Assembly (NCBI RefSeq): GCF_010672265.1
Contig: NZ_JAAHHC010000004.1
Location: 70,161 to 124,802, forward strand
Direction of reading: 5' to 3'
Source of the DNA: Moorena sp. SIO3A2
GTDB taxonomy: Bacteria > Cyanobacteriota > Cyanobacteriia > Cyanobacteriales > Coleofasciculaceae
DNA: 54,642 bases
Under the pieces are notes generated by a model. That model did no database searches, was not told where the DNA came from, and saw only the letters and a list, made by a program, of their open reading frames with translations. Below are positions 32,053 through 54,642 of this stretch, piece by piece. The position numbers were made by a program, and so were the translations under genes. Numbering within the stretch: the first letter of the stretch is position 1; every line of letters starts with the position of its first letter.

Positions 32053-32367
32053 GTGACTACCATGGCCAAAAAATTACTCTCAATAACTAGTAGACCATCA
32101 ACTAGTAGAACATCTCAACCAACGTCAACCTCTACGAGCTCTGAACAAGTCATGAATAATGAGCAGCTTAACCAGGTCGTAGAAGCTATCATCGCGGGCA
32201 AGTATTCTTGGGCTTGTGTGTTAGTTCTGCGTTTTTCTGGTTACAACCCCCTCCATTACATCCCTTACCGAACCTACAATCGCTTAATCAAAGAAAATAG
32301 TCAATCTGGTAAGCATCCAGTTGGCAAAACCCCTGTCTCACAATCACAGGTTGTTAGTAAGGTCTAG
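32053..32367 (+). CDS. HetP-like protein, 104 aa (copy 1)
   Basis: conserved HetP-family core [38 protein letters not shown]. Confidence 0.6.
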
Positions 32368-32801
32368 TCAGGGTTAGGGAAAGTTGGGAGATTCATCAAG
32401 TCTGAAGTTAACCACCTGCCTAGGTCAGTTTGATTGATTATTGATGCAGAGCCTAGTTTTCAACGTCTTCCCGTTTAATCTGTTGAACTGCACTCGCATC
32501 AACCGCACTATCTGCTTAGATCTAGCTGACATCTATTGGCTTGATGAGCTGGCTGATGACTTGACCTCCTATCTCCCTTTCCCCAACCCTTATGGGTTTA
32601 CTTTACACCAGATGCTCTAGGGGGAATTTAAAGTTTCGATGAAGTTTACTTAAAGTATTTGTGAATTTTTTGTGAATTATTGGTAACTAGCCGGTTAATG
32701 ACTTGACAAAAACTAAGTTATTAGATAAATAAATGTAGTTCATTATAAATGGTTAATTGTAAATGGTTAATTGTTAAAAATCAATTTTCAATGTTTAACA
32801 T

Positions 32802-35800
32802 ATGAAGAATATAATCAGGGATTCAGCAGAGCCTAGTAAACCACCGTCTTCTATCAACCCAGACCCTGCTAGCAATTTATCAGTGGTGCTTCAAAGCTTG
32901 ACCCTAGACTCAGTCGATCCAAAGCTCAACTACGAATTTAGTCAATCATTTGACCTTGATCACTTCCAGCTAGGGGATAAAATCCTTGCCTATACTAAAC
33001 CAGAGCTATCCCAAGATTCTGTTGAGATTGAACAAGATCACCAATATCTTTACCTAGTTTGTCAGGGTCGGGTACGACTACTAGGCTTTGATGCTGAAAA
33101 ACAGCGGGAGGTTTCCATACAGGTACTCGAAGAAGGGGAAACTTTTGGTGCCTATGATCTCTTAGGTAGTCTATCCTATCCTTACAGAGCGATCGCAGCG
33201 AGTTCAGGACAAGTTGCTCGTATTTCCCTAAATCAACTCTTGCCTTGGTTGGAACGGTTGCCAAAGTGGTCGGAAATCCTGGGGAAACAAGCCCAGCACC
33301 GGCAATGCCTAATTTTCTTCAAGACTTTGACCAATTTGCGATCGCTTAACGGTGTTACCATAAATCAACTGTTGCCCTACATCGTAGAAACACGCATTGA
33401 GGCTGGGGAGTCTCTGGTGTCCTCTTCCCAAGCTGGTCATTGCTGGCTACGTAGTGGTCAAATGGGAACGCCAGAAGGAACAGAGGCAAATTCCTCTGCT
33501 CCATTTCCTAGCATCGGAGAAAGTTGGGGATATCCGATGCCAGTACCCACAGATTGGATTGCCCAAACTGATGTATTGCTTTACCAGCTGCCTCAAGAGC
33601 ATTGGCAAGCGGCTTGCGCGATCGCACCAGTTTTGGCTAACTCCACCGAGTCACCGGATCAGGAGAACAGGCAAAGTGCTAAAAATGGTGACGGTAAATC
33701 TCCATCGGATCAAGGCGTAGTTAACAAGACCCATACTCCGTCACCACATGCAAACCAGACTAGAGCACGACCGACTCGGCGAGTTTTAGAAACTCCTAAG
33801 CAACAAACGCCCCTTGAACCCAGTCAGTCAGAAAGCTTTGATTTTCCCAAACCAGCAAAGCCGGGTGGGAGATTCCTAAGGTTTTGGCAGCGCTATCCTT
33901 TTATTGAGCAGCAAGCTTCTTCTGATTGTGGTGCTGCCTGCTTAGCCATGATTGGGCAGTATTGGGGCAAACGCTTTGCTCTCAACTCCCTGCGGGAACT
34001 GGCGGGAGTGGGTCGTTCTGGTTCATCCCTCAAAGGTTTAGCTAAAGCAGCGGAAAGTTTAGGGTTTCAAGCTAGTCCAGTCAGGGCTTCTTTAGGTCGC
34101 TTAGCGGATCGGAGTAATCCTTGGATTGCTCACTGGCAAGGAGATCACTATATTGTTGTCTACCAGGTAAAGGGTAATAAGGTACTCGTTGCCGATCCAG
34201 CAGTGGGGAAGCGATCGCTTGCTCGCAAAGACTTTCTCCAAAGTTGGACTGGGTATGCCATGCTATTGGATCCAACTCCCCAACTAGCAATTACTCCCAG
34301 CGACAAACGTTCTTTAGGGCCGTTTTGGGGATTGCTATGGCCCCATCGCTCAGTCCTGCTGCAAATTATCTTGGCTACCCTCATCCTTCAGGTTTTTGGT
34401 CTGATTACTCCCTTATTTACCCAGATCATTCTTGACCGGGTGATTATTAACAGAAGCCTTGTCACTCTCAATGTCTTCTCCATTGGTCTAATCATCTTTG
34501 GCCTTTGGACGATTGGGGTTAGTCTCACCAGACGCTACTTGCTGGACTACTTTTCCAATCGGCTTAGTCTCACCTTCGTCAGTGGCTTCATTAACCATAC
34601 CCTGACCTTACCCCTGAAGTTTTTTGAATCCCGCCAGGTGGGGGATATCCTGACCCGAATTCAGGAAACTGGAAAAATTCAGGGTTTTATAACTCAGCAA
34701 GCGATTGCGACTTGGCTAGATGTGGTGATGGTGTTTGTCTATATTGGACTAATGCTCTACTACAATTGGCGCTTAACCTTGCTGGTGCTGGCAACGATTT
34801 TCCCCATCGCCATCTTGACTGTGATTGCCAGTCCCTTTCTACGCCAGGTGTCCAGGGAAATCTTTAAAGAAGCAGCCCAACAAAATTCTATGTTAGTGGA
34901 AATGATGTCAGGGGTTGCTACTGTGAAAACGGCGGCTTCGGAACAAGAAGTGCGCTGGCGCTGGGAAGATCGCCTCACCAATCAGTTGAATGTACAATTT
35001 AAAGGTAGAAACCTGGCTAACGGGTTAGGGTCAATTAGTTCTCTAATTAATACTCTCAGCAGCACCGCTTTGCTTTGGTTTGGCGCTAGCTTAGTAATTA
35101 ATGAGCAGCTTACTATCGGTCAGTATGTCGCGTTTAATATGCTCATTGGCCGAGTCACTGGTCCGATTTTGGCTCTAGTGAATCTTTGGGATGAGTTTCA
35201 AGAAATCTTGGTGTCTGTAGAACGGCTTAATGATGTCTTATCTGCTAAGCCAGAGGAGAATCCTCAAGAACCAATGTTGGTTCTACCTGAGATTAAGGGT
35301 GATGTAATATTGGAAGATGTTACCTTCCGATACTCCGAGGATGAGGATCGCAATATCCTACAGAATATTTCCCTACAGATTAGGGCTGGAGAAACCATTG
35401 CTCTAGTGGGGCGCAGTGGCTCTGGCAAGAGTACCTTGGTGAAGCTACTGCAAGGTCTCTATCATCCGACTAATGGTCGTATTTTGATAGATGGACACGA
35501 TATCCGCCATATTTCCCCCCAATCTTTGCGTTCTCAAATGGGTGTGGTACCCCAAGAATGTTTCTTGTTCTCGGGGACAATTGTCGAAAATATCACTCTC
35601 TACCGACCGGATTTCAGCCTGGATGAAGCCGTAGAGGTAGCCAAACTAGCAGAAGCTCATGCTTTTATTCAAGGTATGACTTTGGGATATAATACAAAAG
35701 TAGGAGAGCGAGGCTCTACCCTTTCTGGTGGACAGCGACAAAGGATTGCCATAGCCCGAGCCCTATTGGGCAACCCCAAGATTCTGATTCTGGATGAAGC

Positions 35801-36029
35801 GACTAGCTCCCTAGATACAGAATCCGAGCGCCGCTTTCAACAAAACTTAGCTCGCATTAGTCGCGATCGCACTACCTTCATCATCGCCCACCGCCTCTCT
35901 ACAGTGCGCAATGCTGACTGCATCCTTGTCCTAGACCGAGGTGTTCTGGTCGAGAAAGGCAACCATCAGGAACTCATGGATCGTCAAGGTCTTTACTATC
36001 ATCTAGCACAGCAGCAGCTAGATCTTTAA
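32802..36029 (+). CDS. HetC-like ABC exporter: N-terminal cNMP-binding-like domain + peptidase C39 (double-glycine leader peptidase) + 6-TM domain + ABC ATPase, 1075 aa (cassette 1)
   Basis: C39 triad QASSDCGAAC…HYIVVY…D; Walker A GRSGSGKST, signature LSGGQRQRIAIARAL, Walker B ILILDEATS; N-terminal beta-roll-like …LYLVCQGRVRLLGF…GETFGAYDLL…. Confidence 0.9.
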   Translation: MKNIIRDSAEPSKPPSSINPDPASNLSVVLQSLTLDSVDPKLNYEFSQSFDLDHFQLGDKILAYTKPELSQDSVEIEQDHQYLYLVCQGRVRLLGFDAEKQREVSIQVLEEGETFGAYDLLGSLSYPYRAIAASSGQVARISLNQLLPWLERLPKWSEILGKQAQHRQCLIFFKTLTNLRSLNGVTINQLLPYIVETRIEAGESLVSSSQAGHCWLRSGQMGTPEGTEANSSAPFPSIGESWGYPMPVPTDWIAQTDVLLYQLPQEHWQAACAIAPVLANSTESPDQENRQSAKNGDGKSPSDQGVVNKTHTPSPHANQTRARPTRRVLETPKQQTPLEPSQSESFDFPKPAKPGGRFLRFWQRYPFIEQQASSDCGAACLAMIGQYWGKRFALNSLRELAGVGRSGSSLKGLAKAAESLGFQASPVRASLGRLADRSNPWIAHWQGDHYIVVYQVKGNKVLVADPAVGKRSLARKDFLQSWTGYAMLLDPTPQLAITPSDKRSLGPFWGLLWPHRSVLLQIILATLILQVFGLITPLFTQIILDRVIINRSLVTLNVFSIGLIIFGLWTIGVSLTRRYLLDYFSNRLSLTFVSGFINHTLTLPLKFFESRQVGDILTRIQETGKIQGFITQQAIATWLDVVMVFVYIGLMLYYNWRLTLLVLATIFPIAILTVIASPFLRQVSREIFKEAAQQNSMLVEMMSGVATVKTAASEQEVRWRWEDRLTNQLNVQFKGRNLANGLGSISSLINTLSSTALLWFGASLVINEQLTIGQYVAFNMLIGRVTGPILALVNLWDEFQEILVSVERLNDVLSAKPEENPQEPMLVLPEIKGDVILEDVTFRYSEDEDRNILQNISLQIRAGETIALVGRSGSGKSTLVKLLQGLYHPTNGRILIDGHDIRHISPQSLRSQMGVVPQECFLFSGTIVENITLYRPDFSLDEAVEVAKLAEAHAFIQGMTLGYNTKVGERGSTLSGGQRQRIAIARALLGNPKILILDEATSSLDTESERRFQQNLARISRDRTTFIIAHRLSTVRNADCILVLDRGVLVEKGNHQELMDRQGLYYHLAQQQLDL

Positions 36030-54130: not shown

Positions 54131-54235
54131 TCTTAGTAGGGACTAAATCTTAGTAGGGACTAAATTTTATTCCCTACTAAGATTGCTAGGAGTAAGCATT
54201 AGCTTAGCTACCTACCTAAGCCACCTACCAAACTT

Positions 54236-54355
54236 AATAAACTTTCCGCCAACTTGGCGTGACAAGTGAAACAAATTGACTTAAGAGCGGTAGGCTTAAA
54301 ATAACAACAATCAAGTTGTTGAGTAACATAAAACTAACAAAAAAGCAGACCAACC
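54236..54355 (+). promoter_or_regulatory. sixth copy of promoter/UTR unit (CCGCCAACTTGGCGTGACAAGTGAAACAAATT … AACAACAATCAAGTTGTT hairpin) upstream of family-C copy 2
   Basis: visible. Confidence 0.5.
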
Positions 54356-54642
54356 ATGAATATTTCTGACCTAAATCACATCGAAGTTGTTAACGAAGAA
54401 ACCAATATCGTTGGCGCAGGATTCTCCGGACGTGTATTCTTCCGCGATTTCAAGGACATTGATATTAATAAAAGGGTCAATATCAAAGAGCGCTTTGAGT
54501 CTATTGTGAAGGTTAAGGGCAACGCGGCTACTGCTGAAGCTACTGCTGATGCCAAAGGTAAGGATAGTCTGGCTGAAACCATTACTGACGCTCAAGCCAA
54601 TTCCTTCGGCTCTTCGGCAATTTCTCTTTCTGTAGCTTTTGT
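54356..54642 (+). CDS. GG/GA-leader precursor peptide, family C copy 2; 3' end cut by window edge
   Basis: identical to copy 1 except I19V over the 95 aa visible. Confidence 0.55.
   Translation, partial: MNISDLNHIEVVNEETNIVGAGFSGRVFFRDFKDIDINKRVNIKERFESIVKVKGNAATAEATADAKGKDSLAETITDAQANSFGSSAISLSVAF

Follow-up and report, generated by a model that had tools for sequence, protein, structure and literature searches.

Tandem HetC-type peptide-export units with HetP-family partners and double-glycine-leader cargo in the cyanobacterium Moorena sp. SIO3A2

We analyzed 54,642 nucleotides (nt) of the genome of Moorena sp. SIO3A2 (RefSeq assembly GCF_010672265.1, contig NZ_JAAHHC010000004.1, positions 70,161 to 124,802 of the forward strand; this whole 54.6-kb stretch is called the window below), which carry two collinear export units, each organized around a peptidase-containing ABC exporter, an HlyD-family adaptor and a protein of the HetP family. 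Both units, with all of their large open reading frames (ORFs), are on the + strand, and they lie 13.5 kb apart, not 10 kb as given in a preliminary description of this DNA. Unit 1 consists of exporter 1, HlyD adaptor 1, HetP1, five genes for peptides with a double-glycine (GG) leader, an ORF of 98 amino acids (aa) without such a leader and a PpiC-type peptidyl-prolyl isomerase (PPIase), while unit 2 consists of exporter 2, HlyD adaptor 2, HetP2 and two copies of a gene for a peptide with a GA leader, up to the window end. In sister Moorena genomes, unit 2 has 1-3 peptide genes and then, beyond the point where our window ends, a 260-aa Rotamase protein (PPIase); the repeated unit is thus exporter, adaptor, HetP protein, peptide array and isomerase. 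The six module ORFs named in the preliminary description are all present:

32802-36029, + strand: exporter 1, a long-type peptidase-containing ABC transporter of 1075 aa, with cNMP-binding, C39, six-helix membrane and ATPase domains (Pfam, TIGR01193)
36834-38435, + strand: HlyD-family periplasmic adaptor 1, 533 aa (HlyD_3, TIGR01843 type_I_hlyD)
38608-39042, + strand: HetP-family protein 1 (HetP1), 144 aa, comprising HetP domain, linker, GG-type motif and 33-aa tail (NF037966, E 5e-27)
46332-49544, + strand: exporter 2, a paralog of exporter 1 (71%), 1070 aa (Pfam domains)
49715-51349, + strand: HlyD-family adaptor 2 (62% to adaptor 1), 544 aa (HlyD_3, TIGR01843 above cut-off)
52014-52421, + strand: HetP-family protein 2 (HetP2), 135 aa, with the motif IKDLDYAKPLDSRSQLVQGG at 52290-52349 and a 23-aa tail, SKEQWFNKKLPKLYSSTRNIRCF (NF037966, E 5e-21)

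Pfam and NCBIfam searches on these six proteins bear out the domains first read from the sequence (a C39-ABC protein with a cNMP-binding-like domain, HlyD and HetP). Both exporters contain cNMP_binding, Peptidase_C39, ABC_membrane and ABC_tran domains above the Pfam cut-offs, with cNMP_binding at 41.8 and 41.5 bits (cut-off 27.5; E 1e-10) and Peptidase_C39 at E 5e-41. Exporter 1 matches NCBIfam TIGR01193 (peptide cleavage/export ABC transporter) at 528 bits and the match of adaptor 1 to TIGR01843 (type_I_hlyD) reaches 250 bits, both above cut-off. In exporter 1, the C39 motifs SSDCGAACL, GDHYIVVY and VADPA fall at the positions of the PCAT1 Cys, His and Asp; exporter 2 has identical C39 motifs, and the PDB chain with Ala at the Cys position aligns at the same site. 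Walker A (GRSGSGKST), signature (LSGGQRQR) and Walker B (ILILDEATS) sequences are intact in both exporters. The catalytic residues are in place, and the original pairing of C39-ABC plus HlyD with cognate GG-leader peptides stands. Pfam scans detected no TolC-like outer-membrane channel among the window ORFs; as outer-membrane factors for type I secretion are commonly encoded elsewhere, this does not decide type I secretion. A heptamer repeat array follows exporter 1 (36048-36095).

The candidate cargo genes form one array in each unit:

40163-40495, 40574-40909 and 41114-41446, + strand: three tandem paralogous GG-leader genes, 110 aa, leader MLISDLNHLESVEASQVQGG (motif scan, leader HMM)
41735-42022, + strand: GG-leader peptide, 95 aa, leader MIISDLNHLETIAEDPKVVGG (leader HMM E 7e-11)
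42328-42615, + strand: GG-leader peptide with a diverged leader, 95 aa, MKIAQLEYFELQATDHPILGG (leader HMM 3.1 bits)
53837-54130, + strand: GA-leader peptide, 97 aa, MNISDLNHIEVVNEETNIIGA, cut before G (leader HMM E 4e-10)
54356-54642, + strand: second copy of the GA-leader peptide gene, cut by the window end

The arrays start 1120 nt (unit 1) and 1415 nt (unit 2) after the HetP gene, in line with the 1-1.5 kb noted before. A six-frame motif scan of the whole window found exactly seven GG/GA-leader ORFs, all of them on the + strand in these two arrays. The leader hidden Markov model (HMM), which was built from 20 leaders of other genera with Moorena excluded and run on 824 window ORFs, recovers six of the seven (E 4e-11 to 2e-9); aligned, the local leaders read ISDLNHLESVEASQVQGG. 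The three 110-aa paralogs share 90-94% mutual identity and have 90-aa cores rich in Ser, Thr, Asn and Gly; this triplicated family was seen in Moorena only and is specific to cassette 1. Peptides 41735, 42328 and 53837 link to one broad family. The core of 41735 is related to peptides beside HetP-linked cassettes of other genera, 42328 has an ortholog in another Moorena locus (L002 of the synteny survey described below), and the core of 53837 is related to peptides in loci L071, L046, L005 and L007. The idea that the two modules serve different cargo families is thereby retained for the triplicated family and given up for the other three peptides. Neither the cargo peptides nor ORF 42900 matched any family in Pfam or NCBIfam scans, and the source annotation has them as 'hypothetical protein'. 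Passed over until now were the fifth GG peptide (42328-42615), a short HetP gene (32053-32367) and the PpiC-type isomerases that close the units.

The locus belongs to the long-type (HetC-type) peptidase-containing ABC export clusters, groups I/II of Wang, Fewer and Sivonen 2011 (PLoS One 6:e22384, PMC3140520), who sorted such clusters from 58 cyanobacterial genomes into seven groups. The architecture, which the preliminary description took to be undescribed, is already in that paper, HetP-like genes and their motif included. Its authors report for groups I, II and VI a long-type exporter (CAP_ED ahead of C39) accompanied by HlyD and a rotamase ('SurA'), find HetP-like genes 'frequently adjacent' to long-type clusters, mostly in group II, and list several cluster copies per genome (PMC3140520). 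They also propose KIxDLxYLEx10GG as a putative cleavage motif in HetP proteins, which 'may serve as precursors', and their Figure S1A includes alr2818 (HetP) and MC7420_4637, the latter from Moorena's own family (PMC3140520). The Moorena units share with groups I/II the long-type exporter, HlyD, rotamase, GG-leader arrays, an adjacent HetP gene with the motif and the presence of several clusters per genome. They differ in that gene content is group-I-like whereas the precursor and HetP load is group-II-like; the gene content is assigned to group I because no M16 peptidase, APH_ChoK-like or other group II tailoring domain was found in the ORFs scanned (32-54.6 kb). They differ further in being direct tandem paralogs, and Moorena is absent from the 58 genomes. 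Particular to this locus are the lineage-specific tandem duplication of a five-part unit, the third, short HetP gene and the Moorena-specific triplicated cargo.

Wang et al. name such clusters bacteriocin clusters (PMC3140520), and the units could accordingly be classical bacteriocin or microcin loci, with peptides that kill competitors and a duplication that widens the toxin repertoire. The GG-leader/C39-ABC/HlyD combination is the export machinery of microcins and class II bacteriocins, the TIGR01193 match is above cut-off, and cargo copy number differs between strains, as in toxin arrays. However, no immunity-like small membrane protein is present among the ORFs of either unit, and the cores are Cys-free, hydrophilic (maximum 19-residue hydropathy <=0.8) and acidic to neutral (pI 4.1-6.9), with Ser, Thr, Asn, Gly and Ala making up 39-58% of their residues. 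Also, antimicrobial activity of a cyanobacterial long-type cluster was not found in the literature examined, and the sole tested cyanobacterial GG proteins function in biofilm formation. We consider a bacteriocin function unlikely. Because the cores are hydrophilic and Cys-free and both units lack an immunity-like gene, the better guess for the cargo is a secreted matrix, surface or signalling protein and not a membrane-active toxin, at low certainty and with composition as the guide.

The two units are diverged collinear copies, as first proposed, with pairwise identities of 71% (ABC), 62% (HlyD) and 47% (HetP, over 108 aa) in place of the earlier figures of about 75% and 65%. Exporters 1 and 2 are sisters in a neighbour-joining tree, and their next relatives, from Symploca and a Coleofasciculaceae genome, are 65-69% identical; on these comparisons the unit duplication is specific to the Moorena lineage, with both copies maintained. 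Moorena producens 3L and sister strains have identical counterparts of HetP1, exporter 1, the isomerase and the peptides. One cassette might instead be a decaying, non-functional duplicate, given that the HetP pair is far more diverged than the exporters, that intergenic gaps are long and unequal between units 1 and 2 (exporter-HlyD, 804 vs 170 nt; HlyD-HetP, 172 vs 664 nt) and that simple repeats occupy the spacer after HetP2. Yet all six ORFs are full length with catalytic and ATPase motifs intact, and two other Moorena assemblies have exporter 1 at 96% identity. The exact HetP2 sequence recurs on 7 contigs of the collection, the 4 listed being other Moorena assemblies, and each of the 3 among these 4 that extend far enough upstream encodes the full 1070-aa exporter. 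We regard decay of either cassette as highly improbable.

For the HetP component, family membership was defined by NF037966 HetP_family (PF28069; NCBIfam cut-off 45 bits). The conserved HetP N-terminal domain (KYSWACVL ...) is present in three window ORFs, HetP1, HetP2 and a short homolog ahead of unit 1. The short ORF is found 5' of exporter 1 at a distance of 434 nt, lacks an internal GG motif and is conserved at this position only in Moorena loci L001 and L002. Besides the two genes listed above, the HetP features are:

32053-32367, + strand: short HetP-family protein, 104 aa from a GTG start, domain at aa 24-82 (NF037966, E 6e-35)
38881-38940, + strand: internal leader-like motif of HetP1, aa 92-111, with the tail encoded by 38941-39039

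We found at least 589 HetP-family loci (one genome per species) and took the best 80 with 10-kb flanks. The ranking was by similarity to a long-tailed HetP, so that short HetP homologs fall outside the synteny counts, which use the 72 loci with >=6 kb of sequence upstream. A full long-type exporter ends 1-2.9 kb upstream of the HetP gene, directly and on the same strand, in 53/72 loci; exporter fragments occupy this place in 16/72, and nothing does in 3/72. With no more than ~14 such clusters in a genome of 7-9 Mb (Table 1 of Wang et al., PMC3140520), chance adjacency of exporter and HetP should be well below 1%. The enrichment of HetP-like genes next to C39-ABC exporters, on which the preliminary description had staked its interpretation, therefore holds (full exporter, 53/72; fragments, 16/72).

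Positions 92-111 of HetP1 and 93-112 of HetP2 match KIxDLxYLEx10GG of Wang et al., with a predicted cut after GG. In an AlphaFold2 model of HetP1, the N-terminal domain is helical (residues ~18-70, pLDDT >90), the motif-bearing linker (75-112) has low confidence and the tail is a helix. The motif is conserved across homologs and also in nearly all of the 80 surveyed loci. We searched 1.45 million six-frame residues with the signature [ILV]x[DE]Lx[YHF][LIVFC][EKD]x8-13G[GA]; of its 101 occurrences, 65 are inside HetP-family ORFs, 35 at the N-termini of small ORFs and 1 elsewhere, counts that are informative solely via the rarity elsewhere, since the signature was written to fit both the HetP motif and the leaders. 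A sample of 149 representatives of 50%-identity clusters (the family comprises 309 clusters), picked by similarity of the N-terminal domain only, has the generalised motif in 81/99 long-tailed HetP proteins, against 2.2 expected from shuffled tails, and in 1/50 short-tailed ones. Where the upstream exporter is intact, 53/53 HetP genes keep the GG pair; where it is not, 3/19 have lost it (Fisher p = 0.016), an association that rests on about two independent losses because two of the three loss loci are related taxa. The genes that have lost GG are in L046, L051 and L064 (near position 10001; 7123 in L051), where RSG or RGS is found, and all are without an intact upstream exporter.

Taken together, these observations make it probable that HetP-like proteins are clients of the exporter peptidase, which is the best-supported reading of their sequences; as for cleavage at the internal GG, we incline to it by a little. 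Weighing against this reading, besides the limits on the signature counts and the Fisher test, are the following points. With the leader HMM, the HetP1 motif scores only 5.9 bits (E 0.57) and HetP2 goes undetected; compared with the leaders, the HetP motif has two extra residues between the DL-x-Y-x-E core and GG, and this spacer is basic, not acidic. HetP tails are conserved immediately after GG (EQW[LF]), which is unusual for exported cargo. Videau et al. 2016 reportedly found the N-terminal part of HetP to be enough for function. In Anabaena, a C-terminal HetP-GFP fusion fluoresces inside heterocysts, with the same localisation in a hetC peptidase mutant (PMC4133259). Given the weak HMM scores and the longer, basic spacer, we do not claim the HetP motif as a member of the leader family; it is better described as a relative of the leaders that shares their rare signature.

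HetP-like proteins could alternatively be cytoplasmic regulators or DNA-binders that are co-located with the exporter and are not substrates, in which case the GG motif would be a C39 docking site without cleavage (a tether or competitive gate) or an unrelated contact. This fits a description in which HetP binds DNA non-specifically and enhances sigma-HetZ transcription (PMC13342950), the unchanged localisation of HetP-GFP, the faint HMM signal and the tail conservation past GG, and 16 HetP genes retain GG beside a degraded exporter. On the other hand, the 1.45 million residues have the motif otherwise only in true leaders, GG never varies next to an intact upstream exporter and has been lost only where the exporter is gone, and the motif sits in a flexible linker, as expected of a protease site. 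Docking without cleavage also leaves the strict conservation of a glycine pair beside an active peptidase unexplained. A non-substrate role is a serious contender that we rate somewhat below an even chance.

Moorena is placed in the Coleofasciculales; heterocysts are formed only by Nostocales, outside which the Coleofasciculales fall, and Moorena has none. The Moorena exporters are 51% identical to that of locus L025 (Nostoc parmelioides) and 44% to a neighbouring second clade, which agrees with the kinship to the hetC-hetP pair supposed at the outset. We take L025, with ORFs of 1044, 159 and 83 aa, to be a true hetC-hetP-patC locus because the ORF sizes are near those reported for Anabaena (159-aa HetP, alr2818; 84-aa PatC). 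PatC (the 83-84-aa ORF after hetP) was considered as a GG peptide and rejected, the L025 translation having no such leader. Between exporter and HetP, HlyD is full in 14/53 loci, partially similar in 20/53 and lacking in 19/53. Full HlyD is confined to loci not assigned to Nostocales; those placed to genus or family are from Moorena, Symploca, Microseira, Coleofasciculaceae, Stenomitos, Chroococcidiopsidaceae, Aliterella and Leptolyngbyales, all non-Nostocales. In Fischerella sp. PCC 9431 (L015), a 293-aa ORF between the hetC-like exporter and hetP (9050-9931) retains the HlyD membrane anchor and C-terminal barrel but not the long coiled-coil hairpin, and similar internally deleted HlyD genes occur in L014, L016, L018, L021, L029, L032 and L036. 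Partial or deleted HlyD in heterocyst formers and full HlyD elsewhere suggest a full export cassette as the ancestor of the hetC-hetP locus. Non-heterocystous cassettes have, 3' of HetP, GG-leader genes with a MIISDLN(Y/H)LE leader and then an isomerase, and many related loci have a PPIase after HetP.

Many Nostocales loci have a second cassette right after the HetP-linked unit, ~3-9 kb downstream of HetP, with a long-type exporter (44% identity), HlyD (30%) and isomerase (35%); they include L011, L012, L017, L020, L023, L024, L026, L028, L031, L047, L054, L056 and others. The second Nostocales exporters form a separate clade. Tandem pairs of such units are thus common, but those outside Moorena are old paralogs and not recent duplications.

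The remaining features of the units are an isomerase, an ORF of uncertain status and two non-coding repeats:

43443-44201, + strand: PpiC/parvulin-type PPIase closing unit 1, 252 aa (Pfam Rotamase E 4e-11)
42900-43196, + strand: ORF without a recognisable GG leader, uncertain status, 98 aa, inside the cargo array; hypothetical protein in Moorena genomes
39679-40008, no strand: 164-nt direct repeat, non-coding, two copies, 82-95% identical, just 5' of peptide array 1
53202-53803, no strand: 125-nt non-coding repeat, ~5 tandem copies, directly 5' of the first cassette-2 peptide gene

The N-terminus of PPIase 43443 is hydrophilic and shows neither a signal peptide nor a membrane helix, and the protein weakly matches two NCBIfam entries, TIGR04500 (a 'peptide maturation system' PpiC relative) and NifM. 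Since no signal peptide is visible, the enzyme is probably a cytoplasmic holdase or foldase for the cargo and, unlike SurA and PrsA, not a SurA-like periplasmic chaperone. One more copy of the 125-nt repeat precedes the second cassette-2 peptide gene (54198-54322). Each 125-nt unit contains a AACAACAAC...GTTGTTGTT hairpin and a TTGACA-N17-TAAGAG stretch, and a 250-nt piece of the array folds with z = -4.8; the repeats could be a repeated promoter, a regulatory element or a small-RNA array. Neither repeat matches an Rfam family in a scan of the whole window, and a common family for the 164-nt and 125-nt repeats was ruled out, their sequences being unrelated.

Dense simple repeats, several heptamer arrays among them, extend 3' of HetP2 (52447-53065), including a near-perfect 19-nt unit in 5.6 copies (52598-52703) and a perfect 25-nt unit in 4.4 copies (52703-52813), and give spurious ORFs at 52412-52741 (+) and 52500-52814 (-). 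Elsewhere in the window, region 60-9761 encodes two NACHT-NTPase proteins of very large size, 1093 and 1719 aa, with long arrays of HEAT repeats; the 1719-aa protein has an additional NNH2 N-terminal domain, and a 264-aa HEAT-repeat protein comes next. A tRNA gene at 21959-22043 (-) is the sole Rfam match in the window. The 121-aa ORF at 26449-26814 (+) has only a fragment of the serine-recombinase 'Recombinase' domain and may be a mobile-element remnant.

PCAT1 of Clostridium thermocellum (to which the exporter aligns over ~710 residues, E 3e-132), ComA and CvaB/CvaA/TolC have the same C39 catalytic residues and cut after Gly-Gly, and Gram-negative colicin V-type systems likewise use an HlyD-family adaptor. 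In contrast to PCAT1, ComA and CvaB, the Moorena exporters add a ~350-residue N-terminal region with a cNMP-binding domain, and are accompanied by a HetP partner with an internal recognition motif and by an associated cytoplasmic parvulin. PteB/EbfG1-4 of Synechococcus elongatus PCC 7942 similarly combines a cysteine-peptidase ABC exporter with adjacent tandem genes for small GG/GA-motif proteins, a likeness of gene organisation and composition alone. The EbfG proteins are secreted, matured and act in biofilm formation (PMC4997328); a HetP gene is unmentioned in the description of that system (PMC4997328). The hetC-hetP(-patC) locus of Anabaena/Nostoc PCC 7120 shares the exporter architecture, with an active C39 domain, and a same-strand HetP gene with an internal GG motif. 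It differs in that Moorena forms no heterocysts and has a full HlyD and true GG-leader cargo, both absent at hetC; at the hetC loci of heterocyst formers HlyD is lacking, partial or internally deleted. The Moorena units are without a patC-like gene. In Nostoc, HetC's N-terminal part, C39 included, acts in vitro as a cysteine protease on a generic chromogenic substrate; the ATPase and cNMP domains of HetC are indispensable, and binding of ppGpp in vitro was shown for the cNMP domain (PMC10986499). The same 2024 study found no double-glycine-leader gene near hetC and left the HetC substrate as an open question (PMC10986499). A search for later publications on cleavage or export of HetP found none.

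We consider it likely that the locus encodes two paralogous type I secretion units, each cleaving and exporting a cargo of small, hydrophilic, unmodified proteins, with HetP-like proteins as probable further substrates. Gene content, domains, catalytic residues, leaders and conserved synteny are as observed, and from them we infer cleavage, export, ligand, cargo function and HetP processing. The core mechanism would follow what is established for PCATs and two cyanobacterial precedents, the EbfG system and HetC. The C39 domain would bind the ~20-residue leader (M-x-I-S-D-L-N-H-L-E ... G-G/A) and cut after the glycine pair (GG/GA), and the 74-91-residue core would then be pumped through the ABC dimer, the HlyD adaptor and an outer-membrane channel encoded elsewhere. 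The N-terminal cNMP-type domain would gate activity upon binding of a small ligand, and the isomerase probably holds the cargo export-competent. HetP-like proteins would most likely dock through the internal IKDL-x-Y-x-E/K ... GG and be cut by the same peptidase, whereby the N-terminal HetP domain would be freed in the cell and the 23-33-residue tail exported.

A bolder extension, which we put forward tentatively and think rather doubtful as a whole, is that HetP is a two-part pro-protein. A cut by the HetC-type exporter would free the DNA-binding domain and export the tail as a signal, coupling ppGpp-gated export to gene regulation. The Moorena cassettes would then represent the intact ancestral form and hetC-hetP a derivative without HlyD and ordinary cargo, with HetP as the substrate of HetC.

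The gene cluster itself changes little, being a further tandem-duplicated example of a family catalogued in 2011. Its value lies in offering a clean comparison point for the question of the HetC substrate, HetC being essential for heterocyst development. In Moorena the same exporter type is accompanied by a full adaptor, true GG-leader cargo and HetP-like proteins with a closely related internal motif, which points to an ordinary peptide-export cassette as the origin of the developmental hetC-hetP pair. This comparison reduces the proposal that HetP is cut by HetC to a direct test with one protein and one peptidase domain. Retention of GG, the rarity of the signature and the partial or internally deleted HlyD genes of heterocyst formers make HetP as a HetC substrate more concrete, though not proven. 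If the pro-protein interpretation were true, HetP would be the long-sought substrate of HetC.

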